Below are positions 1-15,369 of a stretch of 15,369 nt of DNA, piece by piece. The notes under the pieces were generated by a model. The model did no database searches, had not been told where the DNA came from, and saw nothing but the letters and a program-made list of their open reading frames with translations. This DNA is from a virus (lineage: Duplodnaviria > Heunggongvirae > Uroviricota > Caudoviricetes): IMG/VR virus record IMGVR_UViG_2740892432_000001. One strand, given 5' to 3'. A program made the translations under genes and the position numbers. Positions within the stretch are counted from its first letter, which is position 1. Each line of letters starts with the position of its first letter.

Positions 1-12
1 TGTCCATATTAC

Positions 13-801
13 GTGGGTAGGATCAAGATAGTCTATCGCCCATTACAAGAATTGTCACCGTATGCGCACAACGCCAGGACGCACAGTACTGAGCAGGTGG
101 CACAACTGGTAGAAAGTATTAAGCAATTCGGCTGGACTAATCCGGTGCTGATTGACGAAAAGGGCGAAATTATTGCGGGTCACGGTCGTGTTATGGCGGC
201 TGAAATGCTCAAAATGGATTCTGTTCCGGTCATTGTTCTGTCTGGCCTGACGGATGAGCAGAAAAAGGCGTACCGCCTGGCAGATAATCGCCTGCCGATG
301 AATGCTGGCTGGGATGAAGATCTGTTGCGGATGGAGCTGTCGGACCTAATCAATGCTGATTTTGATGTCTCCCTGACAGGCTTCATCCCGACAGAAATTG
401 ATGAACTGTTGACGGATGTTTTGCCCGGTACAGGAAATGAGGAGGAGCCGTATACGACGAAAATTGATACGCCTGTTTATGAGCCGTCGGGCGGTAAACC
501 GGATATCAGTGAACTGTACGACGATACGAAAACTCAGGAGCTGATCAGCCGGATACGTTCGGCGTCCCTTGAGCCTGATATTGAGAAATTCCTCCTGTGT
601 GCGGCAGAACGTCACACGGTGTTTAATTTCAGCAGAATTGCGGACTATTACGCTCACGCCCCCTCTGAAATTCAGTGTTTTTTCGAGGAGTCGGCGCTGG
701 TGATCATTGATTATCAGCAGGCTATTGAAAATGGATTTGTCCGGATGACGCAGCGCATGGTGGAGATCATGCATGGTGGTGAGGAGGAGGAATATGCGTG
801 A
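13..801 (+). CDS. ParB-like nuclease domain (ParB-N/sulfiredoxin fold) protein with an uncharacterised C-terminal domain; may be 5'-incomplete, since the frame is open to the window edge and the first in-window start is GTG at 13
   Basis: N-terminal ~100 aa (IKIVYRPLQELSPYAHNARTHS...IIAGHGRVMAAEML...AYRLADNRL) matches the ParB N-terminal domain pattern, including a GxGR-like motif. The C-terminal ~130 aa has no motif I recognise. Position just upstream of the terminase genes is common for ParB-like and HNH proteins in phages. Confidence 0.7.
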   Translation: MGRIKIVYRPLQELSPYAHNARTHSTEQVAQLVESIKQFGWTNPVLIDEKGEIIAGHGRVMAAEMLKMDSVPVIVLSGLTDEQKKAYRLADNRLPMNAGWDEDLLRMELSDLINADFDVSLTGFIPTEIDELLTDVLPGTGNEEEPYTTKIDTPVYEPSGGKPDISELYDDTKTQELISRIRSASLEPDIEKFLLCAAERHTVFNFSRIADYYAHAPSEIQCFFEESALVIIDYQQAIENGFVRMTQRMVEIMHGGEEEEYA

Positions 802-1726
802 TGATTTTTGCGCCTTTATTCTGACTCACGGGCGACCGGACAAAGTTCTGACTTACCGGACGTTGCGTCGTGCTGGCTATACCGGGAAAATTTTTATCGT
901 TGTTGATGATGAAGATAAGACACGGCATCAGTACATGGCTGAATTTGGTGAACAGGTGCTGGTGTTTTCCAAAGCCGATATCGCCAGTCGTTTTGACGAA
1001 GTCGATAATTTCTGTGACCGCCGCTCAATTTTTTACGCCCGTAATGCCTGTTTCGACCTGGCAAAACTGGTCGGGTGTAAATACTTCATTCAGCTCGATG
1101 ATGATTATCACGAGTTCCAGTTTCGGGTGGATCGCAACTATGACCAGGCCTATTTTCCGATAAGGAAACTGGATGCGATCCTTTCTGAAATGCTGGCGTA
1201 CTACGAATCAATACCTGCTCTTTCCATCGCTATGTCGCAGGGCGGGGATTTTCTTGGTGACAATGGCGGCCATGCTTCGTGGGTGAAACGCAAGGCAATG
1301 AACAGCTTTATCTGTTCGGTTGATCGACCGTTCTCATTCATGGGGCGCATTAACGAGGATGTGAATACGTACACGAATCTCGGTCGCTGTGGTGAATTGT
1401 TTATGACGATCGGTGCTGTCCAGTTAGGGCAGAAACAGACGCAGAAAAACAGCGGCGGAATGACCGAGCTGTATCTGGATTCCGGAACCTACGTTAAAAG
1501 TTTTTACTCCGTCATGTATGCGCCGTCGTGCGTAAAAATCTCACTGATGGGTGCCAGCCATAAACGCATTCACCATCAGGTCACCTGGAACAACGCTGCA
1601 GTAAAAATCCTTCACGAAAAATACAGGAAGAAGACACCCTGCATATCAATGGGGGTGACAAATGATTCCGTATTCGAAAGTCGAGTCTCTGGCAGCGTGC
1701 CGGATGACTGCACAACAAATCGCTGA
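794..1726 (+). CDS. Putative GT-A fold (GT2-like) glycosyltransferase, apparently cytoplasmic; target unknown
   Basis: ORF 773..1726 in the track. Preferred start is ATG 794, preceded by GGAGGAGGAA at 781-790. It has the GT2 N-terminal pattern (FILTHGRP ... KIFIVVDDEDKT) and a DxD-like motif (FIQLDDDY) about 100 aa in. No obvious transmembrane stretch. Family assignment is by motif only. Confidence 0.5.
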   Translation: MRDDFCAFILTHGRPDKVLTYRTLRRAGYTGKIFIVVDDEDKTRHQYMAEFGEQVLVFSKADIASRFDEVDNFCDRRSIFYARNACFDLAKLVGCKYFIQLDDDYHEFQFRVDRNYDQAYFPIRKLDAILSEMLAYYESIPALSIAMSQGGDFLGDNGGHASWVKRKAMNSFICSVDRPFSFMGRINEDVNTYTNLGRCGELFMTIGAVQLGQKQTQKNSGGMTELYLDSGTYVKSFYSVMYAPSCVKISLMGASHKRIHHQVTWNNAAVKILHEKYRKKTPCISMGVTNDSVFESRVSGSVPDDCTTNR

Positions 1727-1913
1727 CGTTCTGGATGTTGATCTGAACCGACTGAAAGAAAATCGGGAAGCAATGACAGATTTTTATGCGGCCATCCGTA
1801 AGGGCAGAGCGAAAGGTGAAGCCGAGTTACGAGCGGCATTGTTTAAGCTTGCCAGAAAAGGGGATGCCTTTGCTCTGCGCGAACTACTCAGGGTGGATAA
1901 AAATCAGGACTAA
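1662..1913 (+). CDS. Small helix-turn-helix protein upstream of the terminase; possible packaging-associated DNA-binding protein
   Basis: 83-aa ORF with a G-rich RBS (GGGGGTGA) before ATG 1662. Contains an HTH-like segment (MTAQQIADVLDVDLNRL). Overlaps the 3' end of the glycosyltransferase-like ORF by 65 nt. Confidence 0.45.
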   Translation: MIPYSKVESLAACRMTAQQIADVLDVDLNRLKENREAMTDFYAAIRKGRAKGEAELRAALFKLARKGDAFALRELLRVDKNQD

Positions 1914-1916
1914 CTG

Positions 1917-3011
1917 ATGAGCAGACCGGACTGGGGGGCGTTGCAGCAGGAGTATATTGCTGAATACACCCGCTCCGGTATATCTCCGGTGGCATGGTGT
2001 GAAGCAAGGGGACTGAATTACGCAACAGCCCGTCGTTACATCAAAAAAACTCCGAAAAATGCGCAGACAGAAATGTGCAAAACTGCGCAAAAAAGTGCGC
2101 AGAAAAAATCTGCGCAGACTGCACAAAAGCGGAACGAAAAATCTCAGGAAAAAAAGCCAGTATTCGATGCGGGCCTGAATGAGGGCGACGCGGAGGAATT
2201 TTCGTTCTGTCCCGATGAATTCGGCATTTCTGACCAGCAGGCTAAGTTTGCGATGCTTGTTGCTCAGGGTAAAAAGCCGACAGAGGCGTACCGACTAGCC
2301 GGTTATGAGGGGCAAGGTGCGACAGCTAACAGCAACGCCAGTCGTATGCTTAGAAATGCCAGGGTTTTTCGCGCTATCAGCTACTTCCGCAATCAGTACC
2401 AGAAACGCTATACCGCAGACCTGGATTTACTAGTGAGTCAGTTGATGGCTATTGTCCTGGCCGACCCCAATCAGCTTGCACAATTTCGCCGTGTTAACTG
2501 CCGTTATTGCTGGGGCGAGAATCATCTCTACCAGTGGCGCGATATAGCAGAATTCGACAAGGCAGCGGCGCAGGCTTCCAGAGATGGCAAACCCGAACCG
2601 GAATATGGAGGCCTCGGCTTTGTTGATAACGCCATACCCAATCCGGACTGCCCGAAGTGCTGCGGTGAGGGAACGGGACAGCTTTATATGGCTGATACCA
2701 CTCTGCTTGATGGGGATGCGCGGCAATTATATGCAGGGGCAAAATTCGGAAAATTCGGCGTTGAGATCCTGCTGGAGGATAAGGCTGCCGCCCGGCGTGA
2801 ATTGTTGCGTTTGTTTTCTGCTGGCGGGGCTTTATGTGCAGATAAACGGCTACAGGAACTGGAAATTGAACGGCGCAGAATGGAAAACCAGAAGCTGCGC
2901 AAAGAGATCGAAACGGTGGAAGATAATGAACATCCCCAGCCTGTGGCGATCAATATTAATGTGGTTGATGCCAGAGTAAGGAGTGATGAAGATGATCTCT
3001 CCGACGCTTAA
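1917..3011 (+). CDS. Terminase small subunit (TerS) with N-terminal HTH, low-complexity AQ/K linker and C-terminal Cys4 zinc-ribbon-like motif
   Basis: AGGA RBS before ATG 1917. Central segment (FAMLVAQGKKPTEAYRLAGYEG...ANSNASRMLRNARVFRAISYF) matches the terminase small subunit signature of the Terminase_2 type. Has CRYC...CPKCC cysteine pairs. Lies immediately upstream of and overlapping the large subunit. Confidence 0.7.
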   Translation: MSRPDWGALQQEYIAEYTRSGISPVAWCEARGLNYATARRYIKKTPKNAQTEMCKTAQKSAQKKSAQTAQKRNEKSQEKKPVFDAGLNEGDAEEFSFCPDEFGISDQQAKFAMLVAQGKKPTEAYRLAGYEGQGATANSNASRMLRNARVFRAISYFRNQYQKRYTADLDLLVSQLMAIVLADPNQLAQFRRVNCRYCWGENHLYQWRDIAEFDKAAAQASRDGKPEPEYGGLGFVDNAIPNPDCPKCCGEGTGQLYMADTTLLDGDARQLYAGAKFGKFGVEILLEDKAAARRELLRLFSAGGALCADKRLQELEIERRRMENQKLRKEIETVEDNEHPQPVAININVVDARVRSDEDDLSDA

Positions 3012-4293
3012 TGTGCCTCAGGCGCGATTTCTTTCAATGCCCCATAAATTTAAAGCCTATATTGCTGGTTTTGGCTCGGGCAAAACATGGGTTGGGTGTG
3101 GCGGCATATGCAAGGGGATTTGGGAGCATCCAGGTATAAATCAGGGATATTTTGCGCCAACGTATCCCCAAATTCGCGATATTTTTTACCCTACAGTGGA
3201 AGAAGTTGCTGCTGACTGGGGATTGAACGTAAAAATTAATGAGGGAAATAAAGAGGTTCACTTTTATTACGGACGCCAGTATCGGGGAACCACTATCTGC
3301 AGATCGATGGAGAAGCCACAAACGATCGTCGGTTTCAAAATTGGTAATGCGTTGGTGGATGAACTGGACATTTTGCCGAAGGAAAAAGCCAGAACGGCGT
3401 GGCGCAAGATAATTGCACGTATGCGTTATAAGATTGATGGACTTCGCAACGGTATTGACGTTACAACCACGCCGGAAGGATTCAAATTTGTCTACGAGCA
3501 GTTTGTTAAAGCCGTGCGTGAAAAAACAGAGCTGGCCTCACTGTATGGTCTGGTGCAGGCATCTACTTTCGATAATGAAAAGAACCTGCCAGCAGATTAC
3601 ATTCCTTCGCTTCTTGAATCATACCCTCCAGAGCTGATTAAAGCCTATCTTCGAGGACAGTTTACTAACCTGACAAGTGGTACTGTTTACCATCAGTTTG
3701 ACCGGAAACTGAATAATTGCGAAGAAGTGGAGCAGCCAGGGGAGCCGATTTATATTGGGATGGATTTTAACGTTGGAAAGATGGCGGGAATCGTCCATGT
3801 GCTGCGTTTGGGGCTTCCATGTGCGGTAACTGAAATCATCAATGCCTACGATACGCCGGATATGATCCGCATCATTAAAGAACGCTTCTGGCTGTATGAT
3901 GGGAATGATTACCGGAAAGTGAGGGAAATTTATATTTATCCAGATGCTTCCGGGGATTCCAGAAAATCAAGTAACGCAAGTACGACGGATATAGCCCAGC
4001 TTAAGCAGGCTGGTTTTAACGTTGTGGTGAACAGCTCGAACCCGCCAGTAAAAGATCGCGTTAACTCAATGAATGCAATGTTCTGCAATGCCAATGGTGA
4101 GCGTCGCTATAAAGTTAATGTGAAGCGTTGCCCGTTATATGCCGAATCTCTGGAGCAACAGGTCTGGGATGAGAAGGGGGAGCCTGATAAAAAATCTGGC
4201 AATGATCACCCGAATGATGCCGGAGGTTATTTCATCGTTAAGCAATTCCCTATTGTCAAACCGACCGGAAGAGTCACATCACTTCGGATTTAA
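2992..4293 (+). CDS. Terminase large subunit (TerL), ATPase/nuclease
   Basis: Walker A-like GFGSGKTW near the N-terminus; size and position are typical. The track ORF starts at GTG 2983. I prefer ATG 2992, 8 nt after the TAAGGAG RBS at 2977-2983, though 2983 or 2986 are possible. It overlaps the TerS stop. Confidence 0.8.
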   Translation: MISPTLNVPQARFLSMPHKFKAYIAGFGSGKTWVGCGGICKGIWEHPGINQGYFAPTYPQIRDIFYPTVEEVAADWGLNVKINEGNKEVHFYYGRQYRGTTICRSMEKPQTIVGFKIGNALVDELDILPKEKARTAWRKIIARMRYKIDGLRNGIDVTTTPEGFKFVYEQFVKAVREKTELASLYGLVQASTFDNEKNLPADYIPSLLESYPPELIKAYLRGQFTNLTSGTVYHQFDRKLNNCEEVEQPGEPIYIGMDFNVGKMAGIVHVLRLGLPCAVTEIINAYDTPDMIRIIKERFWLYDGNDYRKVREIYIYPDASGDSRKSSNASTTDIAQLKQAGFNVVVNSSNPPVKDRVNSMNAMFCNANGERRYKVNVKRCPLYAESLEQQVWDEKGEPDKKSGNDHPNDAGGYFIVKQFPIVKPTGRVTSLRI

Positions 4294-4295
4294 TT

Positions 4296-5702
4296 ATGGC
4301 TGATATATCAACACCCAACCTCGACTATAACGATATGCTGGAGGCGTGGGATATTAACGACGCACTGATGGGCGGTACGCTTGAAATGCGCAGGCAGGGG
4401 GAAAATTATCTCCCAAAATGGCCTAACGAAGATGAAGACGCTTATAAAAAACGCCTGTCTGTGGCTACGCTACTTCCTGTGTATGAAGAAAGCATCAAGC
4501 AAAATATTGGGCGCATATTTGCAGAGCCGACAGTATTGAGTGAGGAAACGCCGGCAAAAATCAGGGAATATGCAGAAAATATCGACATGGAGGGGAGCCG
4601 ACTGGATGTGTGGGCGCAGCAATTTTTCAGCCTCGCATTTCAGTATGGTGTGGCACATGCGCTGGTGGACTATCCACGAACGGATATGAAAGAGATTCGG
4701 ACAAAAGCCGATGAAAACGCGACCGGTGGTCGTCCGTACGTTACGATGCTGAATCCACGCCAGGTTATTGGATGGAAATCGAAAGTTGAAAAAGGGAAAG
4801 TTGTTCTCACTGATTTGCGTATAAAAGAGGTCATCATTATTGATGGTGATGATTTCGGGCAGAAGAAGGTGGAGCAGATCCGCCATATTATGCCCCGTCG
4901 AGTTGAAATTTATCGACGTAGCGAAGGCACTAATGGCGAATCTGTCTGGACGCTTCATGAGTCATGGAATACCAGCCGTGATGATATTCCTCTGGTAACA
5001 CTGTACACGAAGAAAACAGGATTTATGCGTGGTACACCGCCATTGCTTAATCTTGGCTTGCTGAATATCAAGCACTGGCAAAGCCAGAGCGAGCAGGACA
5101 ATATTCTTCATGTTGCCCGCGTTCCATTGCTGGTGGCCTACGGGCTGGACAGGAATGAAGAACTGACGGTTGGTGCATCCACCGCTACGATTTTTGAGGA
5201 CAGAACAAAAAATGGCCTCGAATATGTTGAACATAGTGGCGCAGCGATAGAATCTGGCGAAACATCACTTGAGAAGCTGGAAAATCAGATGCGTCATGCC
5301 GGCGCTAAACTTCTGCGTGCTGAAAATACATCCACCAAATCTGTTGATCAGACTAATGAAGAGCGAATGCAGGAAAACTCGCCGCTTTATACAATGGCGA
5401 ACTCCCTCGAAGATGCCCTCGATAATATTCTCCAGATAATGGCGGAATGGATCGGAGAGAGTTGCGGTGGCAATGTGGATGTGCGCACTGAACTGGATGT
5501 ATCTGCCCAGGTGTTTGACTCATCCTCCGCGCTGGCTGTTCAGTCATTGCGTCAGGGCGGTGATATACGTCAGATTGATGCGGTTCGGGTGTTGCAGGCG
5601 TTGAAATTTATCGATCAGGATTCCCGTCCAGAGGAAGTGATCGATGAATTAAAAAATCAGAGTGTAATGCTGATGGAAATCAATGATGCAAACCGTGAAT
5701 GA
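4296..5702 (+). CDS. Portal protein
   Basis: 468-aa ORF starting 2 nt after the TerL stop. Size and conserved position (TerL, portal, minor head protein) support the call. No specific motif verified. Confidence 0.65.
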   Translation: MADISTPNLDYNDMLEAWDINDALMGGTLEMRRQGENYLPKWPNEDEDAYKKRLSVATLLPVYEESIKQNIGRIFAEPTVLSEETPAKIREYAENIDMEGSRLDVWAQQFFSLAFQYGVAHALVDYPRTDMKEIRTKADENATGGRPYVTMLNPRQVIGWKSKVEKGKVVLTDLRIKEVIIIDGDDFGQKKVEQIRHIMPRRVEIYRRSEGTNGESVWTLHESWNTSRDDIPLVTLYTKKTGFMRGTPPLLNLGLLNIKHWQSQSEQDNILHVARVPLLVAYGLDRNEELTVGASTATIFEDRTKNGLEYVEHSGAAIESGETSLEKLENQMRHAGAKLLRAENTSTKSVDQTNEERMQENSPLYTMANSLEDALDNILQIMAEWIGESCGGNVDVRTELDVSAQVFDSSSALAVQSLRQGGDIRQIDAVRVLQALKFIDQDSRPEEVIDELKNQSVMLMEINDANRE

Positions 5703-6798
5703 ACGGCTGCGTGATGAATCAATTGCTCATGCAGTCTGGATATCCCGCTATAGCACTGGCGTGGCTGCCAGAATGGTGAAAATACTGAATGACAGCGATG
5801 CGGAACTTACTGCTCGCCTGCTGATAGCACTGGACAGCCTCGATCCAGGTAATTTTACCGTTAAGCGCCTGGAGTCACTTCTGGCGAGCGTCAGAGAGGT
5901 TAACCGCACTGCTATTAACAGCATGTTTACCAGTCTCTCCGGAGAGCTGAACGAGCTGGCAATTTATGAGGCTGGTTATCAGTTAAGTCTGTTTGATTCT
6001 ATGCTACCTGATTTTGTTGCTGATGTTCACCCTCTGGTTGGTATCTCTCCTGATGCACTTTATGCCGCTGCAATGGCGCGACCATTCCAGGGACGACTGC
6101 TCAGTGAGTGGGCCTCAGATCTTGAGGCGGATCGGCTCAGACGCATAACAAATACAGTGCGTCAGGGTTTTTTGCTGGGGGATACCAATGAGCAGATCGC
6201 AAGAAAAATTCGGGGACATGTCAGTAAGGGATTTCAGGATGGTGCATTGCAGATGAGCCGGGCTAATGCGGCCAGCATTGCAAAAACAGCGGTTGGACAT
6301 CTTGCTGCTACTGCCCGTGAGAGTTTTGCCAGCGCGAATAATGATTTGATTAAGGGTAAGCAATGGTTATCAACGCTTGATAATCGTACTACGCCACAAT
6401 GTCGAATCAGGGATCGCCTCAAATATACGCTGAATAATAAACCTGTAGGTCACAGCGTGCCTTATTTGCAGGGGCCGGGAAAAATTCATTTCTGCTGCCG
6501 CTCAACGGAAACGTTCATTCTGAAATCAGCGAAGGAACTGGGTATTGATGTTCGCGATATTTCCCCGGCTGAGCGGGCCAGCATGGATGGCGTGGTGGCC
6601 GGAGATACAACCTACAGGGAATGGTTTTTGCGTCAGCCTTACACCAGACAAAAACAGATTGTGGGGGAAACCCGAGCAAAGCTGATTCGGGATGGTGGTA
6701 TGTCGCCAGATGAATTTTACACCGATAAAGGCGAATGGCTGACGCTGAAGCAGCTCCGTGAGCGTGATGCACAGGTATTCAGAAAAGCAGGGATTTAA
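5683..6798 (+). CDS. Head morphogenesis / minor head protein (Mu gpF / SPP1 gp7-like)
   Basis: 371-aa ORF overlapping the portal stop by 20 nt. Position directly after the portal and overall composition are typical of the Mu F-like family. Followed by an intrinsic terminator. Confidence 0.6.
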   Translation: MMQTVNERLRDESIAHAVWISRYSTGVAARMVKILNDSDAELTARLLIALDSLDPGNFTVKRLESLLASVREVNRTAINSMFTSLSGELNELAIYEAGYQLSLFDSMLPDFVADVHPLVGISPDALYAAAMARPFQGRLLSEWASDLEADRLRRITNTVRQGFLLGDTNEQIARKIRGHVSKGFQDGALQMSRANAASIAKTAVGHLAATARESFASANNDLIKGKQWLSTLDNRTTPQCRIRDRLKYTLNNKPVGHSVPYLQGPGKIHFCCRSTETFILKSAKELGIDVRDISPAERASMDGVVAGDTTYREWFLRQPYTRQKQIVGETRAKLIRDGGMSPDEFYTDKGEWLTLKQLRERDAQVFRKAGI

Positions 6799-6817
6799 AT
6801 AAATCATTTATTACAAC

Positions 6818-6843
6818 AGGCTACCTTCGGGTGGCCTTTTTTA
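6818..6843 (+). terminator. Rho-independent terminator after the head morphogenesis gene
   Basis: AGGCTACC-TTCG-GGTGGCCT stem-loop (one G-U pair) followed by a T6 run, directly after the stop codon at 6798. Confidence 0.6.
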
Positions 6844-6902
6844 TTGCTGCGATCCGGATGGTGAGCAGCGTAACTGTCGGAAGACTTAAACCAGGTACTA
6901 AT

Positions 6903-7667
6903 ATGAAACTGAAAACGGTCGAGATTAACGGAAAACAATACGCAGAAATTGATACTGCTGGCCTGCCAGTTTATGTGCACGACGATGGTAAAGAAATTGG
7001 CTTCGATGCACCGCTGGCGACAAAAAAAATTACAGAGCTTAATGGCGAGGCAAAAAATCATCGCCTGGCTAAAGAAGCTGCAGAGGAAAAACTGGCTAAG
7101 TTTGCCGCTATCGAAGACCCGAAGAAGGCGATCGAGGCACTGGAAATGCTGTCAAAAATCGACCAGAAAAAGCTGCTCGATGCGGGACAGGTTGACCAGG
7201 TTAAGGCAGAAATTACGAAAAATTTTCAGCAGCAATTAGATGAAGAAAAGCAACGCTCTCAGATGCTGGAGAAGCAGCTTTACGATTCTATGATTGGCGG
7301 TAGTTTTGCGGGTTCAAAATATATTGCCGATAAAATTGCGATCCCGGCAGATTTATTACAAGCCCGCTTCGGGCAGGCATTCAAAGTGGAAGAAGGGAGG
7401 ATCGTTGCTTATGACGCTTCCGGCAACAAAATTTATTCCCGCGCGAAGCCTGGCGAACTGGCGCAGTTTGATGAGGCGCTGGAGTTCCTTGTCGAAAATT
7501 ACCCTCAGAAAGACTACATCCTGAAAGCCAGTGGCAACAATGGCGGCGGCTCCCGTCCGACACAGCATGATATTGGTCAGAAAACGATGAAACGCTCTGC
7601 TTTTGATGCACTGGATGTTGCAGGTAAGCAAAACGCATTGAAAGACGGTATCACAATCGTTGATTAA
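6903..7667 (+). CDS. Putative scaffolding protein
   Basis: Track ORF 6831..7667 begins with GTG inside the terminator. I prefer ATG 6903 (MKLKTVEINGK...). The product is charged, K/E/Q-rich and predicted helical, and sits between the minor head protein and the major capsid protein. Confidence 0.5.
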   Translation: MKLKTVEINGKQYAEIDTAGLPVYVHDDGKEIGFDAPLATKKITELNGEAKNHRLAKEAAEEKLAKFAAIEDPKKAIEALEMLSKIDQKKLLDAGQVDQVKAEITKNFQQQLDEEKQRSQMLEKQLYDSMIGGSFAGSKYIADKIAIPADLLQARFGQAFKVEEGRIVAYDASGNKIYSRAKPGELAQFDEALEFLVENYPQKDYILKASGNNGGGSRPTQHDIGQKTMKRSAFDALDVAGKQNALKDGITIVD

Positions 7668-7765
7668 CACATTTGTCAGCTTCCGGATGGGAGCTGGTGT
7701 CAGGGCTGGATAGCTCATTACTCCATCTATTCACAATTACGCAAATTTTTAAGGAATATTTAATT

Positions 7766-8905
7766 ATGGCTGGAAATACCCTGACCGGGTTGATCCCGAC
7801 TATTTATACCGCCCTGGATGTTGTATCCCGTGAGCAGGTAGGTTTTATCCCTGCGGTAGCAAAAAACGCAAAAGCTGACGCCGCAGCAAAAGATCAAACG
7901 GTAACCGCGCCAGTTGCGCCTGAGGCGAAAACCGAAGATATCGTACCGGGGCCGTCAGCTCCGAATACCGGTGATCAAAATATTGGCACTGTTGATGTAA
8001 AAATTACTAAATCCAAAATGGCACCGGTTAAATGGAATGGTGAAGAACAACTGGCTCTTGGCCCTTCAGGGACTTACAACACCATTCTGGCTGATCAGTT
8101 CAAGCAGGCTTTTCGCGCCCTTGCAAACGAGGTTGAGGCTGATCTTGGTGCGTTGTATTTCGGTGCTTCCCGCGCCGTGGGAACCGCAGGGACAACGCCG
8201 TTTGGTGTTAAAGATGATCTTTCTGATGCTGCTCTGGCTCGTCAGGTTCTGGAGGATAACGGCGCACCGACAACCGATCTGCAGATGGTGCTTGGCTCCA
8301 CTGCCATTGCTAATTTGCGCGGAAAACAGTCTGTATTATTTAAAGTGAATGAATCCGGCACTGAACAGCTACTGCGTGAGGGCGTGTTGGGGCGTCTGGA
8401 GGGATTCAATATTCACAGTTCGGCAGGTGTGAAACGAGCGCCAAAGGTTGCTGCAACTGGTTATCTCGTGAATGGAGAGAAAAAAGAAGGCGATGTTCTT
8501 ATTTCCATTGATACTGGTTCGGGGAGTATTTCTGCAGGTCAGATTGTTACGTTCGCTGGTGATCCGAATCAGTATGTTGTGGCAGCAGCGACCAGCAATC
8601 TGATTACTCTTGCAGCGCCCGGACTGCGTCAGGATCTGGCCGATGATACTGCCATCACAGTTGTTGGGGCCTTTACTGCAAATATGGCGTTTGATCGCAA
8701 CGCGTTTCTGCTGGCATCCCGTACTCCGGCAATGCCGGAAGGTGGCGATAATGCTGATGATGTAATGAATGTTACGGACCCGATTTCAGGGATTACGTTC
8801 CAGATTGCACTGTATCGTCAGTATCGCCAGGTGCGCTATGAAGTTGGACTGGCATGGGGTGTTTCATCAGTGAAGCCGGCACATGGTTGTCTGATTCTTG
8901 GTTAA
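7766..8905 (+). CDS. Major capsid protein
   Basis: Track ORF 7673..8905. Preferred start is ATG 7766 with an AAGGA RBS (MAGNTLTGLIPTIYTALDV...). About 380 aa, directly after the scaffold gene and followed by a strong terminator, the usual arrangement for a highly expressed coat gene. Confidence 0.7.
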   Translation: MAGNTLTGLIPTIYTALDVVSREQVGFIPAVAKNAKADAAAKDQTVTAPVAPEAKTEDIVPGPSAPNTGDQNIGTVDVKITKSKMAPVKWNGEEQLALGPSGTYNTILADQFKQAFRALANEVEADLGALYFGASRAVGTAGTTPFGVKDDLSDAALARQVLEDNGAPTTDLQMVLGSTAIANLRGKQSVLFKVNESGTEQLLREGVLGRLEGFNIHSSAGVKRAPKVAATGYLVNGEKKEGDVLISIDTGSGSISAGQIVTFAGDPNQYVVAAATSNLITLAAPGLRQDLADDTAITVVGAFTANMAFDRNAFLLASRTPAMPEGGDNADDVMNVTDPISGITFQIALYRQYRQVRYEVGLAWGVSSVKPAHGCLILG

Positions 8906-8915
8906 ACATTCAAAC

Positions 8916-8936
8916 GGGGCTTCGGCCCCATTTTTA
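8916..8936 (+). terminator. Rho-independent terminator after the major capsid gene
   Basis: GGGGC-TTCG-GCCCC hairpin followed by ATTTTT, 10 nt after the capsid stop codon. Confidence 0.7.
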
Positions 8937-8947
8937 ATGGGGGGCAT

Positions 8948-9124
8948 ATGGCCGGATTAACTAAAGAGCAAAGAGCACAGCGTGAAGCCGCACAAAAAAC
9001 GCAAATTGAGTTAGTGGTTATGGTGACCGATTATCAGATGTTTCCCGGCGCACCAACTATCGCTAATGTTCATCCTGATGAAGTTGACAACTGGAAGGCT
9101 ATGGGCTGGAAAACTCAGGAGTAA
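8948..9124 (+). CDS. Small hypothetical protein (58 aa) between the capsid and head-tail joining genes; below the ORF-track length cutoff
   Basis: Hand-translated as MAGLTKEQRAQREAAQKTQIELVVMVTDYQMFPGAPTIANVHPDEVDNWKAMGWKTQE, with a G-rich RBS (GGGGGG) upstream of ATG 8948. It fills an otherwise uncoded gap, and the next gene's RBS follows immediately. Confidence 0.4.
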   Translation: MAGLTKEQRAQREAAQKTQIELVVMVTDYQMFPGAPTIANVHPDEVDNWKAMGWKTQE

Positions 9125-9127
9125 CAC

Positions 9128-9523
9128 ATGATCACTTACGTGACCTGTGATGACGTTGATAATGCGTTTGGGAACGCCTGGACGAGTGAGAACGCTAAAA
9201 ATAAAGCTGTTTTAATGGCTAATGCCTGGCTTAATGGCTTCAACCTGAAAATTAACCCATCCCGTATTCCGGAAGAGGTAAAACTTGCGGGAGCATATGC
9301 AGCCAGAATTGCCTCATTCGGTAAGTTGTTTCAGCAGAAAAATGATTCTGGCGTTGTTATCAGTAAAGCCGTGTCGGCTGACGGGGTCAGTGTATCGAAA
9401 TCATTTTCTGAGTTGCCAGCAAACAGCACTGCATTGCTTGAACCCGATTTACAGCTTGCGATAGCACTGCTGAAACCGTACGGACTTAGTCGCTCACAAG
9501 TCAGGGTTGTGAGGGGGGGATAA
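9128..9523 (+). CDS. Putative head-tail connector / head completion protein
   Basis: 131-aa ORF with an AGGAG RBS 7 nt before ATG 9128. Size and position are typical of head-tail adaptor proteins. Family not verified. Confidence 0.45.
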   Translation: MITYVTCDDVDNAFGNAWTSENAKNKAVLMANAWLNGFNLKINPSRIPEEVKLAGAYAARIASFGKLFQQKNDSGVVISKAVSADGVSVSKSFSELPANSTALLEPDLQLAIALLKPYGLSRSQVRVVRGG

Positions 9524-9906
9524 TGGGGCTTCGTGAAGAGATTCAGTCAGAGGTTGCCGCTGCTTTTGATGAGGATTTAGCGGACGCCGTGAGTGATTTT
9601 TCTGGTTCTTACGTTACGCACCGGCACTGGGATCCTGTGACGGAAACTGGCGGCGAATCCACCGCAATCTATACCGGGCGAGGCGTGTTGACACGTTATA
9701 AGCTGGGCAGAATTGATGGGATTAATATTTTGCATGGTGACCTTAAATTAACCGCTCTGGTATGCGAGGTTACGGATAAACCAGCTGTCGACCATATTAT
9801 TGAGATTTATGATCCTGTATCAAGGCAGTTACAACGATACGAGGTAATTACAGCAAGTGTAGATCCTTCCGCATCAGTTTACTCTATCCAGTTAAGGAGA
9901 GCGTAA
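9523..9906 (+). CDS. Putative head closure / neck protein
   Basis: 127-aa ORF translationally coupled to the previous gene (TAATG overlap at 9521-9525) with a GGGGGGG RBS. Assigned by position in the head-tail joining cluster. Confidence 0.4.
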   Translation: MGLREEIQSEVAAAFDEDLADAVSDFSGSYVTHRHWDPVTETGGESTAIYTGRGVLTRYKLGRIDGINILHGDLKLTALVCEVTDKPAVDHIIEIYDPVSRQLQRYEVITASVDPSASVYSIQLRRA

Positions 9907-10287
9907 ATGGCAAAGGCATGGGATATAGAACCGTCAATATTTGCCGGGATGATTGAGGAAGATGTAGGGCTGAAGATTCGCTACATCGCTATTCAGATTC
10001 TTACTGCTATTGATATTGCTGCTCCGGTTGATACCGGACGTTTCAGAAATAACAACCTGGTGTCGTTACAGCATCCCGATTTTGGTATATCTGATAACGT
10101 GGATCCGAACGGTACGATTGCTGTTCAGCGTGGGATCGGGGTTATTTCGAAAGCTGCAAATTACGGGGTTATTTATATCCAAAATAACCTTCCTTATGCA
10201 GAGGCTCTTGAAAACGGTCATTCACAACAAGCGCCAACTGGCGTGTATGCCAACGCTTTTCATGGTGTTTTACAGGCTTACAAATGA
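9907..10287 (+). CDS. HK97 gp10-family protein (tail completion / head-tail joining)
   Basis: AAGGAG RBS and ATG immediately after the previous stop. Contains a PVDTGRFRNN motif resembling the DTGxLRxS signature of the HK97 gp10 family, recalled from memory. Confidence 0.55.
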   Translation: MAKAWDIEPSIFAGMIEEDVGLKIRYIAIQILTAIDIAAPVDTGRFRNNNLVSLQHPDFGISDNVDPNGTIAVQRGIGVISKAANYGVIYIQNNLPYAEALENGHSQQAPTGVYANAFHGVLQAYK

Positions 10288-10676
10288 AGTTTACTGAAAT
10301 CAGAAATACGGTTATTTCCAGAATGACGGCACAGACGATTATTGATGGAAAAGACGTATTGTATCCGAACGGGCCAACGTTCGATCCTTCCGGTAAGTTA
10401 ATCTGGGCGCGGTTAAGTAATATTCCCGGGCAGGCTGGAGTTAATGAAATTGGCGCGGGGCCGGTTGTTTATCGCACGGGGATAATCATTATTCAGTTAT
10501 TTGTCCCCGCAGGTTCTGGTTCAAAACTCATTACTGAGACAGCCGATAAATTGCGGGAACTGTTTGAGTTTCAGGATGACGATCGTCTCAGTTACCAGGC
10601 TGTTTCCTCAATAGCCGTCGGCGAAAAGAATGGCTGGTTCCAGCTTAATCTTCAAATTCCATATCACGCGCTCTAG
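10284..10676 (+). CDS. Putative tail terminator / tail completion protein
   Basis: 130-aa ORF coupled to the previous gene by an ATGA overlap at 10284-10287. Lies just upstream of the tail tube gene, the usual place for the tail terminator. Confidence 0.4.
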   Translation: MKFTEIRNTVISRMTAQTIIDGKDVLYPNGPTFDPSGKLIWARLSNIPGQAGVNEIGAGPVVYRTGIIIIQLFVPAGSGSKLITETADKLRELFEFQDDDRLSYQAVSSIAVGEKNGWFQLNLQIPYHAL

Positions 10677-10702
10677 CGCAATTAATGACATAGGAGGCTC
10701 CT

Positions 10703-11665
10703 GTGAGTTCAGGTGCAAAGGTTATCTCGGCATTTATCCGGGAGACAGTTGCAGGCACTACGCCAGCAAGTGGTGACTGGAGTTTATTAAAACGCACAAG
10801 CTGGGGAGTAAAACCCACCCAGAATAAAGGCGAAAATAATGAGATTGGTGGCTCCCGGATGGCTCAGGGGGCGACGCCTGGCACTGTGGATGTCGGCGGT
10901 GATGTTGGTACCAAATTTCGCTGGGGTCAACATGATGATTTTCTTGCATCCTGTTTCGGCGCGGAATGGTCAGGCGATTCTCTGACAATGGGGAATGAGC
11001 GAATAACATTTTCTCTGGCGACCTATGCGTCCGATGTCGGAATTGCCTCTGTCGTCAGAGGAGCGCAGGTTGGCTCATGGAAAATGCAGATCCCTAACGA
11101 CGGCGATATTACAGCGACCGTAACCTTTGCCGGGCTGGGCTGGGAATCAAAGGCCGATGATACGAATTTTATCAAAGGCGAACCTGTGGATAGTGCAGGA
11201 AAGTTACGCTATTCGTTTAAGGCGGTTTCAGCAGTAAGCCTGAATGGTGTTGCCGGAGGTAACGGTTTTTGTATCGACAGTTTTGATATTCAGTTCGATA
11301 ACAAACTCCAGACACAGCGTTGTATCGGGACTGGCTCGCCTTATGCAGGAGCAAATATTCCGACTACTTTTACACCGTCCGGTACGGTGACGCTTTCATG
11401 GTCTAAAGCCGCGTGGGAAATCTGGAGTAAAACACTGACTGGAGAAACAGTTCCGTTCAGCTTCACGCTTTCGAATGGAGAGGGGGCATACACTTTCAGT
11501 TTCCCGAAGGTTCAGGTGTCAGGTGAATGGCCTGATGGGGGTAATACTGACATTATCCAGGTTCAATTGAGCATTACCGCAGCAGATGAAGCACCTACGA
11601 TAACCAGAAAAAAATGCTCCCCGACTGCCGTGATCGCAAAAGCCAGTGCTGATGCGATTAGTTGA
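10703..11665 (+). CDS. Major tail tube protein
   Basis: GTG start 5 nt after a TAGGAGG RBS. 320 aa, G/T/S-rich and beta-rich, located between the head-tail joining genes and the G/GT chaperone pair. Confidence 0.6.
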   Translation: MSSGAKVISAFIRETVAGTTPASGDWSLLKRTSWGVKPTQNKGENNEIGGSRMAQGATPGTVDVGGDVGTKFRWGQHDDFLASCFGAEWSGDSLTMGNERITFSLATYASDVGIASVVRGAQVGSWKMQIPNDGDITATVTFAGLGWESKADDTNFIKGEPVDSAGKLRYSFKAVSAVSLNGVAGGNGFCIDSFDIQFDNKLQTQRCIGTGSPYAGANIPTTFTPSGTVTLSWSKAAWEIWSKTLTGETVPFSFTLSNGEGAYTFSFPKVQVSGEWPDGGNTDIIQVQLSITAADEAPTITRKKCSPTAVIAKASADAIS

Positions 11666-11677
11666 TTTTCCGTTATT

Positions 11678-11704
11678 CCCCCTGTGGTACTGCACTACAG
11701 GGGG
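11678..11704 (+). promoter_or_regulatory. Stable stem-loop without a U-tract downstream of the tail tube gene; possible transcript stabiliser or partial attenuator
   Basis: CCCCCTGT (11678-11685) pairs with ACAGGGGG (11697-11704) around an 11-nt loop. No T-run follows. Confidence 0.4.
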
Positions 11705-11713
11705 ACGCATTGA

Positions 11714-12175
11714 ATGAGGTTATGGATGTTTATTCTTAATCAGAAAATTATCATCGGTGGAGAACGCTGGTTTACGCCAATGAAGGACTTAAAACCTGTA
11801 GACGGGTTAAAACTGTTGGTGGCAAGCAGCGATAACGATCAGTATCGCTCCCGTAATGCATTAATCCGTCGTCACATTGAGAAAATGGATGCCAGTTTGC
11901 ACGTCGGAACGAAGGAGTTTGATATTTCAAAGGTTTCCGAGGTAGATTCTGTTGATGATTTACTCATTGATAATGCTGCTCGTTATCTGCTGAAAGACTG
12001 GAAAGGGGTTGGTGAACTGGTTAATGGTGCTGAGGTTGCACTGGAATATACGCCAGAACGAGGGATCGCGCTGCTTAAGCAGAATCCAGAGTTGTACTGG
12101 CAGATCCTTGCAGAAGCAGCCAGCATCGCCCAGGGTAAAGAGCAGCAGAAGCAGGATACGATAAAAAAGCCATAG
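11714..12175 (+). CDS. Tail assembly chaperone (lambda gpG-like)
   Basis: Acidic ~150-aa ORF between the tail tube and tape measure genes. It ends with the slippery heptamer A_AAA_AAG just before its stop, and an open -1 frame follows. The start is ambiguous (ATG 11714, 11726 or 11780). Confidence 0.6.
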   Translation: MRLWMFILNQKIIIGGERWFTPMKDLKPVDGLKLLVASSDNDQYRSRNALIRRHIEKMDASLHVGTKEFDISKVSEVDSVDDLLIDNAARYLLKDWKGVGELVNGAEVALEYTPERGIALLKQNPELYWQILAEAASIAQGKEQQKQDTIKKP

Positions 12176-12483
12176 CCGCCCAGCGGTGGTTATCGGAGTT
12201 CGGGGGAGAAAGGGGGGAAAAGGCAAGATGGAAGCGAGAAAAACTCAGGTTGCCACCGATACCGGAACCAGAAATAGACCCGGTGCTTAAGGAATTGTTG
12301 TACGCCTATTCGGTAATATCCCGTGCCCGACGTTATGCTGGAATGACCGGGGTGCCTTTGCCTTTATCTCTGACAGAGATAAATGAATATTTAGCCACTC
12401 ATCCGGTATTGATTGAGCGCGATGAGTTTGAAGCAGTGATCTTTGCACTGGATGACCAGTATTTTCAGGAGCAGTGTGTGTAG
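11714..12483 (+). CDS. Tail assembly chaperone -1 frameshift fusion product (lambda gpGT-like)
   Basis: The -1 frame is open from 12139 to the stop at 12483. Slipping at A_AAA_AAG (12163-12169) joins the gpG-like frame to it, giving ...IKK then AIAAQRWLSEFGGERGEKAR...FQEQCV. This is the conserved G/GT arrangement of long-tailed phages. Confidence 0.55.
12163..12169 (+). other. Programmed -1 ribosomal frameshift slippery site A_AAA_AAG
   Basis: The heptamer AAAAAAG is positioned in the zero frame as A AAA AAG (codons AAA 12164-12166, AAG 12167-12169), two codons before the chaperone stop (TAG 12173-12175). Confidence 0.6.
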
Positions 12484-12603
12484 TTGTTAATTACGTACAC
12501 TCTGTTACAGAGATGTGATGGTGTCTTTAATTAAATCGATGATGCTCCTGGAGAAAAGCATTGCGTGGCCTCGTAATCGCTATATCTACTATTATGTCGC
12601 CTG

Positions 12604-12630
12604 AAACCCACTTCGGTGGGCTTTTTGTTG
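12604..12630 (+). terminator. Rho-independent terminator-like hairpin between the chaperone and tape measure genes
   Basis: CCCAC-TTCG-GTGGG hairpin (12607-12620) followed by CTTTTTGTTG, then a GGAG RBS and the ATG at 12647. Likely a partial terminator lowering expression of the low-copy tape measure protein. Confidence 0.5.
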
Positions 12631-12646
12631 TCTGGAGTTTTAATAA

Positions 12647-14797
12647 ATGGCAGAGCAAACCTCGCGTCTCGCAATAATTATTGATAGCACTGGAGCAAAA
12701 AATAATGCTGACAATCTGACCTCCTCATTAGTCAAAATGACGCAGGCCGGGGAAACTGCTGCAAATAGCGCAGGGAAAGTGACTAAGGCAACAGAAGATG
12801 AGAAGAACGCGCTCGCAAAATTAAAAGCAGCTATTGATCCAGTTGGTGCCGCAATTGATACTGTCGGTCGACGCTATTCTGAATTAAAGAAATTTTTCGA
12901 TAAAGGGCTTATTGATAAAGAAGAATATGAATTTCTTGTCCGTAAACTTAATGAAACCACAGAGGAATTGAGCGGGGTTGCGCAAGCGCAGAGAGAAGCC
13001 GAGAAGGCCGGAAAACTTGCTGCCGCCCAGCAGGAAGCGCAGGCTCAGGCCTTTCAAAGAATGCTGGACAAGATCGACCCTCTGGCTGCGGCGCTAAGAA
13101 ATCTTGAACAACAGCAGGATGAACTTAATGCTGCGTTTGCATCCGGGAAAATAAATGGTTCTCAGTTTGAGAATTATAGCCGAAAAATGCAGGAAACACG
13201 GCGAGAGCTTACCGGAGAGGCTCAGGCAGAGCGAGAAGCAGCAAAAGCGCATGATGAACAGGTTGCTGCTTTGCAACGTCTGATTGCTCAACTTGACCCT
13301 GTCGGAACTGCTTTTAATCGTCTGGTAGAACAACAGAAACAGCTCAATGAAGCAAAAGCTAAGGGGATGCTCTCTCCTGAAATGTATGAGGAACTTTCTG
13401 GAAAACTTCGTGCTATGCGGAGTGAGCTTGAGGTTACTCAATCTCAATTAAGCAAAACCGGAATGTCGGCAAAACAAACGGCTTTTGCTATGCGCATGTT
13501 GCCTGCACAAATGACGGATATTGTTGTTGGGTTGTCCACTGGTCAGTCGCCTTTTATGGTGTTAATGCAGCAGGGCGGCCAGCTAAAAGATATGTTCGGT
13601 GGGATTGGCCCGGCGATCAAAGGTGTTGGTTCTTATGTGCTGGGATTAATTAATCCTTTTACCCTGGCCGCAGCAGCCGTTGGCGTCTTAGGGCTGGCTT
13701 ACTATAAAGGCTCTCAGGAGCAGGACGAATTTAATAAATCTCTTATTCTTACCGGAAATCAGTTGGGGACAACCAGCGGGCAATTGGCCGATATAGCTCA
13801 ACGTGCCGGGAATGCGGCTGATTCGACAACTGGCGCTGCGGCGGCAGTATTAAACCAGCTTGTGCGTTCGGGAAAGGTAGCGAGCAGTTCGCTGGAGCAA
13901 GTGACGACAGCGATAGTAAAAACGAGCGAAGTAACAGGAATATCAACCGAACAACTGGTTAATGACTTCAATGAAATTGCAAAGGATCCTGTCAGTGCCA
14001 TATCAAAACTTAATGATCAGTACCATTTTCTGACAATTGCGACTTATAACCAGATTAAGGCGCTACAGGATGAAGGGAACCAGCAGGAGGCCGCCCGCAT
14101 TGCGACAGAAGCATACTCATCCTCAATGATCCAGCGCACCAACCAGATTAAAGAAAATCTTGGTTATCTTGAGACTGCATGGAAAGCTGTCGCAGACTCC
14201 GCAAAATGGGCATGGGATTCCATGCTGGACATTGGCCGTGAGGCCTCCCTTGATCAAAAAATCTCAGATGTTCTCCGTCAAATTGATGAAATAGAAAAAA
14301 ATACCCAACCCGGAGTTTTCGGGTTAGGTGGCATTGGAGATGGCGGAGCTCAAAATAAAAGGCTGGCACGATTAAAGCAGCAATTGGGCGTACTTCAAGC
14401 AGAAAAAATTGGTGCGCATACCCATAGTTTAAGTGGCAGCACGAATGCAGCTGGTAATCACAGCCATAGAGATGGCCGTCGATTTAACCCCAGTGTTTTT
14501 AAAGATACTTATCAATATGGTTATACAAGCTCAGGTCAAAATACCTGGGGTGTACAAGGCTCAGTAGGTATGTCTACGGGGTGGTTAGCTAATACCAGTA
14601 CAGATGGTAATCATAGCCACTCACTGTCCGGCACAGCAGCATCTGCAGGTGCACACGCGCATACTGTCGGTATTGGTGCTCATACGCACTCCGTTGCGAT
14701 TGGTTCACATGGACACACCATCACCGTTAACGCTGCTGGTAACGCGGAAAACACCGTCAAAAACATCGCATTTAACTATATTGTGAGGCTTGCATAA
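12647..14797 (+). CDS. Chimeric protein: lambda gpH-like tail tape measure N-terminal region (about aa 1-585) fused in frame to a side-tail-fibre C-terminal HxH tip domain (about aa 586-716)
   Basis: The N-terminal part is coiled-coil rich and contains the gpH-family block [38 protein letters not shown]. From about nt 14400 the sequence switches to repeated GxHxHS motifs ([40 protein letters not shown]) and ends ...[18 protein letters not shown], matching the lambda Stf C-terminus as I recall it. Confidence 0.6.
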
Positions 14798-15369
14798 TGG
14801 CATTCAGAATGAGTGAACAACCACGGACCATAACAATTTATAATCTGCTGGCCGGAACTAATGAATTTATTGGTGAAGGTGATGCATATATTCCGCCTCA
14901 TACAGGTCTGCCAGCAAACAGTACCGATACTGCACCGCCAGATATTCCGGCTGGCTTCGTGGCTGTTTTCAACAGTGATGAGTCATCGTGGCATCTCGTT
15001 GAAGATCATCGGGGTAAAACGGTTTATGACGTGGCTTCCGGCGACGCGTTATTTATTTCTGAACTCGGTCCGTTACCGGAAAATGTTACCTGGTTATCGC
15101 CGGAAGGGGAGTTTCAGAAGTGGAACGGCGCAGCCTGGGTGAAGGATACGGAAGCAGAAAAACTGTTCCGGATCCGGGAGGCGGAAGAAACAAAAAACAA
15201 CCTGATGCAGGTAGCCAGTGAGCATATTGCGCCGCTTCAGGATGCTGCAGATCTGGAAATTGCAACGGAGGAAGAAATCTCGTTGCTGGAAGCATGGAAA
15301 AAGTATCGGGTATTGCTGAACCGTGTTGATACGTCAACTGCACAGGATATTGAATGGCCAGCACTGCCG
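14797..15369 (+). CDS. tfa: Tail fibre assembly protein (lambda Tfa-like), 3'-partial at the window edge
   Basis: Not in the ORF track because no stop falls within the window. Hand translation from ATG 14797 (TAATG overlap with the upstream stop) is open for 191 codons to the window end: [39 protein letters not shown]... This is near-identical in pattern to the lambda Tfa N-terminus as recalled. Confidence 0.7.

Follow-up and report, generated by a model that had tools for sequence, protein, structure and literature searches.

An in-frame tape-measure and side-tail-fibre chimera in a defective Rac prophage of Escherichia coli

The 15,369-nt stretch of DNA analysed here (the window) raises the question of how the tape measure protein (TMP) gene of a lambdoid prophage came to run, without a break in its reading frame, into the tip of a side tail fibre (Stf) gene, and whether a prophage so arranged can still make a tail or has been put to some other use. 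Taking the evidence as a whole, we are highly confident that the answer lies in a deletion within a Rac prophage, which by chance gave an in-frame chimera and left a defective prophage in the course of decay.

The chimeric reading frame and its neighbours

The 716-aa ORF at 12647..14797 (+ strand) was read by the first-pass annotation as a tape measure followed by a fibre tip bearing His-x-His (HxH) motifs, and Pfam, the PHROG profiles and a match to PDB 2XGF likewise split the protein in two. On the N-terminal side, the Pfam domain TMP_2 lies at aa 267-471 (E=5e-82), the PHROG tape-measure profile phrog_24 spans aa 182-587, and the PHROG tape-measure profiles taken together cover aa ~100-587; Pfam finds no domain in the ORF C-terminal to TMP_2. 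Residues 587-716 correspond to the C-terminal ends of PHROG tail-fibre profiles, and the final 128 aa match the tip of T4 gp37 (PDB 2XGF) over its C-terminal 114 residues (E=8e-24). DNA comparison, together with Pfam for the one part and the 2XGF match for the other, resolves the ORF into a TMP-derived part (12647..14411, +), comprising codons 1-588 of a 1077-codon gene, and an Stf-derived part (14410..14797, +), comprising the final 128 codons of a 1023-codon stf gene. The RefSeq entry for the chimera, WP_077882953.1, has as its sole annotation 'phage tail length tape measure family protein'.

The domains TMP_4 and Tape_meas_lam_C, found at aa 671-748 and 858-932 of the TMP of the rac-like prophage in E. 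coli M18, are absent from the 716-aa ORF in the Pfam search, as are phage_tail_N, the fibre repeats and Collar, which occupy aa 1-134, 506-546 and 798-845 respectively of M18 Stf. The tip retains six HxH motifs against seven in the parent Stf, the first having been lost. In comparison with T4 gp37 (2XGF) and lambda Stf, the needle/head region, the HxH motifs and the extreme C-terminus align, and here as in lambda Stf/Tfa a Tfa-type chaperone gene lies directly 3' of the tip; the difference is that the tip here has no fibre shaft, collar or tail-attachment domain. That a Tfa-like gene follows the ORF directly had been noted at the outset, and a Caudo_TAP match (Pfam, E=4.6e-43) and the strain annotations identify it as tfaR, encoding a tail fibre assembly chaperone (14797..15369, +). 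Its start overlaps the stop of the chimera (TAATG at 14797), and all of its 191 codons are in the window, the stop codon falling just past the window end. At its other end, the chimeric ORF retains the tape measure's own ribosome-binding site. A scan of the window against Rfam gave IS009 inside tfaR as its sole match, unrelated to the junction between the two parts.

Upstream of the chimera, the tail tube protein gene (10703..11665, +; PHROGs and strain annotation), the terminator gene and the gene for tail assembly chaperone G, a ydaY homologue (11714..12175, +; phrog_313, E=8e-47), are intact. A slippery heptamer A AAA AAG (12163-12169) leads into a -1 frame T extension that is open to 12483 (12163..12483, +), and the classical G/GT programmed frameshift is preserved. 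The window's head and packaging genes share their protein accessions with intact relatives, so the first-pass description of an intact packaging and head module holds for the structural genes; it fails for ynaK (ParB-like), the start of which is cut off by the end of an IS3 copy, whose terminal inverted repeat occupies 1..24 (+), a few codons into the gene. The IS3 in ynaK is a sign that this copy of the prophage has decayed further. Since the upstream tail, head and packaging genes are intact, the lesion is specific to the distal tail, with the addition of IS3 in ynaK.

A Rac prophage and its intact relatives

The chromosome of strain E1 is 100% identical to positions 25-15369 of the window, and those of PRO_A-1462-6M-A (hereafter PRO_A) and RM9513 are nearly identical to it. 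The left end of the prophage in E1 is ttcA-intR-xisR; there follow an early region, ralR-recT-recE-kilR-sieB, and then the lysis genes, trkG, ynaK, the terminase, portal, head and tube genes, ydaY and the fusion ORF. On sequence similarity and gene order, the window can be assigned to the late (head-tail) region of Rac, or of a rac-like lambdoid prophage of E. coli, at ttcA. Published work depicts Rac as a prophage of long standing and wide distribution, integrated at ttcA, to which rac-like elements in O157 strains are related (PMC4632033). The first-pass annotation had allowed that gpM-, gpL- or gpJ-like genes might be found immediately downstream of the Tfa gene, beyond the window. In 3/3 complete genomes carrying the fusion, tfaR is followed instead by pinR, ydfK, ynaM and then the host gene uspF, so that there are no tail-tip genes beyond the window; nor do the annotated complete genomes with the fusion have tail-tip genes elsewhere in the prophage.

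The cryptic prophage Rac of K-12 MG1655 (ynaA/tmpR'-lomR'-stfR-tfaR-pinR) shares with the prophage described here the ttcA site, the early genes intR, xisR, ralR, recET, kilR and sieB, the trkG-ynaK-ydaY landmarks and the right end tfaR-pinR-ynaE/ydfK-ynaM, and it has undergone a deletion of its own whose left end also lies in the tape-measure gene. In K-12, however, the entire head module is gone, ynaK being joined to ydaY, whereas the head module here is complete; and in K-12 a TMP fragment (nt 1-935) is joined to lom and stfR is full-length, whereas in the fusion Rac the deletion reaches from TMP nt 1765 into stf and yields an in-frame chimera.

The parental arrangement is seen in structurally complete rac-like prophages (E. 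coli M18 and CEC15; Sp10/CP-933R type), which are 99.8-99.9% identical in DNA to window positions 25-14411, have a stf tip that is 100% identical and a tfaR that is nearly so, and differ in carrying the 10.7 kb with the TMP C-terminus, M to J, Lom and the Stf N-terminus. The order in M18 Rac is TMP (1077 aa)-M-like-L-K (C40 peptidase)-I-J-Lom-Stf (1023 aa)-TfaR-PinR. An in-frame deletion of the gpH C-terminus, M, L, K, I, J, lom and the stf N-terminus had been proposed from the window, and M18 holds exactly those between the two flanks. Between M18 and the window there are 3 differences in 1765 nt of TMP, and 6 in 960 nt of stf tip plus tfaR, all of them inside tfaR. The segment missing relative to M18 is 10,685 bp long (positions 16175-26859 of locus L004); with it went the last 489 residues of the tape measure, the first 895 residues of Stf and, as whole genes, lom and those homologous to lambda M, L, K, I and J. 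Of the 5,426 complete E. coli genomes, 526 retain 80% or more of the deleted segment in one place.

The deletion junction and its origin

Three-way alignment places the junction at 14410..14411 (+), at a TG common to both parents (2-bp microhomology), a few bases from the first-pass estimate of about nt 14400 (14395-14410). At the join, the window reads CAGAAAAAATTG followed directly by GTGCGCATACC, the parental TMP gene reads CAGAAAAAATTGCTCAGGACG and the parental stf gene reads CGAATAACACTGGTGCGCATACC. Intact TMP genes from hundreds of E. coli genomes are 99.8-99.9% identical to window positions 12647-14411 and divergent beyond, while the stf 3' ends of many E. coli prophages are 100% identical from window position 14410 (query position 81). 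The T of the junction is in third and the G in first codon position in TMP and in stf alike; because the two genes are thus in the same codon phase at TG, the join is in frame, linking TMP residues 1-588 to Stf residues 896-1023, and the 716-aa ORF survives. Over the 11 nt flanking the join the parents agree at 6/11, in an A-rich context. The short direct-repeat homology sought at the junction comes to only 2 bp, an overlap within chance: by our own calculation ~15% of random joins have a microhomology of at least 2 bp. A longer microhomology, suggested by one database hit (H34) whose match begins 12 nt earlier, was rejected, the additional matches being scattered chance identities with a different stf allele.

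A single deletion of ~10.7 kb, from TMP codon 589 to stf codon 895, fused the two genes. Since the parents have only TG in common at the join, homologous recombination between direct repeats was rejected, and site-specific recombination would be disfavoured on the same ground; we infer that illegitimate recombination, at the level of microhomology, or end joining is the most likely event. That the outcome is in frame is most likely due to chance, the chance expectation for an in-frame join being one in three.

It is very unlikely, in our estimation, that a dedicated enzyme made the deletion, whether the serine invertase PinR acting on pseudo-sites or an IS element by adjacent deletion. The gene for PinR is close by, ~100 bp past tfaR, and serine recombinases exchange at a 2-bp core, the same length as the overlap at the junction. 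The core consensus of the Hin/Gin/Cin/Pin crossover sites is AAACC-NN-GGTTT, however, and neither parental junction resembles it; a search of the whole parental locus with ≤2 mismatches gave 12 matches, against 15.4 expected from shuffled sequence, and none in stf or at the TMP breakpoint. As for an IS, another lineage (P0002) has IS1 in its TMP gene only 10 bp from the junction, the C-terminus of P0002 being presumably a read-through of the IS1 end. This argument is countered by the fact that no IS sequence is left at the junction here, that the window keeps 10 bp of TMP beyond the IS1 point, which adjacent deletion would remove, and that the IS1 allele is on a different TMP haplotype (P0002/P0003); an IS1-mediated deletion was therefore rejected.

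Consequences, decay and inheritance

In lambda-type tails, the tip complex of J, I, L, K and M together with the tape-measure C-terminus is the initiator for tube polymerisation. A prophage without the tail tip/baseplate hub and the hub-docking TMP C-terminus would form no siphovirus tail unaided, and because both the tip genes and the TMP C-terminus are missing here, we infer by analogy with the lambda assembly pathway that this one cannot assemble a tail by itself. Heads or other partial structures could form, given late transcription, the head, tube, terminator and G/GT genes being intact. Defective lambdoid prophages of O157 can sometimes be mobilised with the help of co-resident prophages (PMC2669165), and in the same way M, L, K, I and J homologues in other prophages might provide tails, either in trans or through recombination. 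An indirect hint on this point comes from a similarity search listing the top-ranked records, in which E1 and RM9513 each had a single place matching the window, even with the widely repeated stf-tip/tfa sequence included.

The locus is a defective prophage, an ordinary case of prophage decay. This much of the first-pass interpretation is sustained by the comparison with intact relatives, in which the M18 order shows the tail genes to have been deleted; its alternative suggestion of a domesticated head-maker finds no support, and the state of other copies in the same lineage gives some evidence against it. It is very unlikely that the remnant has been domesticated, to make heads or tail-less (GTA-like) particles, or that the chimera has a function of its own. 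In favour of domestication it can be said that the fusion is in frame, that the window and E1 both retain intact genes for the head, portal, terminase, tube and G/GT chaperones, with accessions equal to those of intact relatives, and that the Tfa chaperone needed for the folding of HxH tips is still present. In RM9513, however, the large terminase gene terL has a nonsense codon (E370*), and 4/5 of the SNPs that separate this genome from the window alter protein. In E1, the early region carries an IS1 and sieB is frameshifted; there is also an IS3, accompanied by loss of the Q-type late antiterminator region (DUF1367/DUF1364/DUF1133), which in RM9513 and PRO_A lies upstream of the lysis genes. 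PRO_A for its part contains IS1 and, in addition, IS3 twice. Across the fusion lineage, then, the structural genes are not uniformly kept intact, in a sample of three complete genomes which gives limited power, and the allele is limited to 3/5,426 complete genomes. Nor does the in-frame join itself weigh heavily for domestication, being expected by chance in one case in three. In AH65/AH62 a comparable deletion joins TMP at ~nt 1228 to stf in the wrong frame, and an ORF of 411 aa is what remains, so that the reading frame is not conserved in such deletions. K-12, AH65 and the fusion lineage represent at least three independent deletions from inside TMP to lom or stf, all of which spare the stf tip-tfaR-pinR end. 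Enterobacterial prophages, as Bobay, Touchon and Rocha are said to have reported in PNAS in 2014, are inactivated fast by deletion and then eroded by IS elements and point mutations. From decaying prophages of that description, and from the defective pool of O157 (PMC2669165), the fusion Rac differs in nothing of kind.

In all likelihood the chimeric protein is a by-product without function. A stable chimera could possibly be expressed, to judge from the retained frame, the ribosome-binding site and the adjacent Tfa gene. The tape measure and the fibre tip are both trimeric. It is nevertheless a slender prospect that TfaR folds the chimera into an active trimer with a receptor-binding tip, or that DNA-filled heads are given the tails of another lambdoid prophage; if so, a trimeric chimera might nucleate aberrant tubes or interfere with related phages.

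The fusion occurs in 3/5,426 complete E. coli genomes, sampled from wastewater (Panama), a human (Tanzania) and a crow (California). In a large protein collection, 35 contigs encode the exact 716-aa protein and 2 further contigs a variant differing at 2 residues. Between each of the three complete genomes and the window there are 0-5 SNPs in 15.3 kb, and all three genomes have a frameshifted ompN nearby, which together suggest a single clone. The TMP part shows 2-3 nt differences in 1765 from the closest intact alleles and the stf tip shows zero from M18, and this near absence of divergence points to a recent event. Judged from these comparisons, the deletion is a young one, clonally inherited in one E. 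coli lineage.

That a functional phage instead encodes the 716-aa protein by design, as a tape measure naturally ending in a receptor-binding HxH tip, is exceedingly improbable. Only the existence of the open reading frame speaks for it, whereas both flanks are nearly identical in hundreds of genomes in which they belong to two full-length genes 10.7 kb apart, and the prophage has no tail-tip genes anywhere else. The first-pass annotation had pointed to functional relatives with a collinear tape measure and HxH C-terminus as an observation that would overturn its own deletion reading; a 236-aa query spanning the junction matched 517 phage records, the two halves always on separate tape-measure and fibre genes, and no collinear protein was found among 50,697 phage records. 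Several records named as phages, the vB_EcoS-...R series and Salmonella phage SPF_0923, match window positions 25-14411 and were considered as evidence for a functional phage; they were rejected, since vB_EcoS-683R6 at least is a prophage prediction with the host flanks abgA...ttcA. The chance that the fusion is an assembly artefact, a mis-join of two repeated prophage regions, is practically nil: most E. coli genomes contain repeats of the stf tip and tfa sequences, and such repeats are known to cause mis-assembly, but one and the same junction is present in three independently made complete genomes from three continents, with the flanking host genes in normal order, and the protein recurs, exactly or as its variant, on the contigs counted above.

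Rac being a well-known element, the finding has little importance beyond annotation. WP_077882953.1 should be read as a TMP::Stf deletion chimera, and its presence as a flag of a non-infective copy of Rac. The fusion adds one more precisely mapped case to the pattern of Rac decay, and its junction is usable as a clonal marker of the lineage that carries it.

Independent deletions beginning in the tape-measure gene

The deletion that created the TMP::Stf fusion of the window is one of several in Rac prophages that begin in the tape-measure gene. Two further Rac lineages carry independent deletions whose left end lies within this gene: in K-12 (locus L007, 5455-6600) the deletion connects TMP nt 935 with lom, and in AH65 and AH62 (L003 of AH65, 8001-10246) it connects TMP ~nt 1228 with stf, out of frame. 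The stf tip-tfaR-pinR end survives in all three cases. A different Rac TMP haplotype, represented by proteins P0002/P0003 (E. coli HVH 188 and 16 contigs), has an IS1 inserted after codon 585, and its ORF continues by read-through into GNDSNLLIVFYVQIMPDDFVMQLHRF, the end of IS1. The insertion site corresponds to window ~14401 and is separated from the deletion junction by just 10 bp, so the A-rich sequence here may be fragile or targeted.

Provenance of the window and variation among Rac copies

Window positions 1-24 are an IS3 terminal repeat; an identical 24-mer borders the IS3 copies in E. coli E1 and PRO_A, two genomes bearing the fusion. The element inserted ~15 nt into ynaK, a ParB-like gene, at the window start, so that the 262-aa ORF with a GTG start at 13-801 is ynaK truncated at its 5' end. 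None of the complete genomes examined has an IS3 at this ynaK position, so the window is from a fourth member of the fusion-bearing lineage. RM9513, which carries the same fusion, has in addition a GAG to TAG change (E370*) in its large terminase gene (L010, 11968-13269; window position 4099). The cargo between the replication and lysis genes varies among Rac copies: E1 encodes an 'anti-phage deoxyguanosine triphosphatase', a hypothetical protein and an MBL-fold hydrolase, adjoining an IS3 (L006, 21475-27269), and strain 266917_2 the S8 peptidase IteS (L002, 1-1334). In the GenBank 'phage' record vB_EcoS-683R6 (ON470595.1; L008, 1-14278), ~14 kb are host chromosomal sequence (abgT ... ttcA); the record is a prophage prediction, not a virion genome.

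Sequences flanking the fusion gene

Upstream of the TMP gene, a -1 programmed frameshift of the classical G/GT type is found on the plus strand at 12163-12483. The ydaY-like chaperone gene has its slippery A AAA AAG two codons ahead of the stop, and beyond it the -1 frame stays open for ~105 more codons; RefSeq lists the T part of the pair on its own, as a hypothetical protein of 66 aa. The spacer that separates the GT chaperone and TMP genes contains a hairpin resembling a terminator, CCCAC-TTCG-GTGGG and then CTTTTTGTT (12607-12630, plus strand). It is located ~17 nt before the TMP start codon, in a stretch matching intact relatives at 99.8% or more. Downstream, a match to Rfam IS009 (RF02111) on the plus strand at 15140-15338 (220.9 bits; gathering score 117) falls wholly inside the tfaR coding sequence. 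In M18, whose tail region is undeleted, the serine invertase gene pinR is retained beside stf-tfaR (L004, 24174-28508), and because this interval holds neither an alternative inverted stf'/tfa' cassette nor a recognisable crossover site, PinR looks like an orphan invertase in these copies of Rac.
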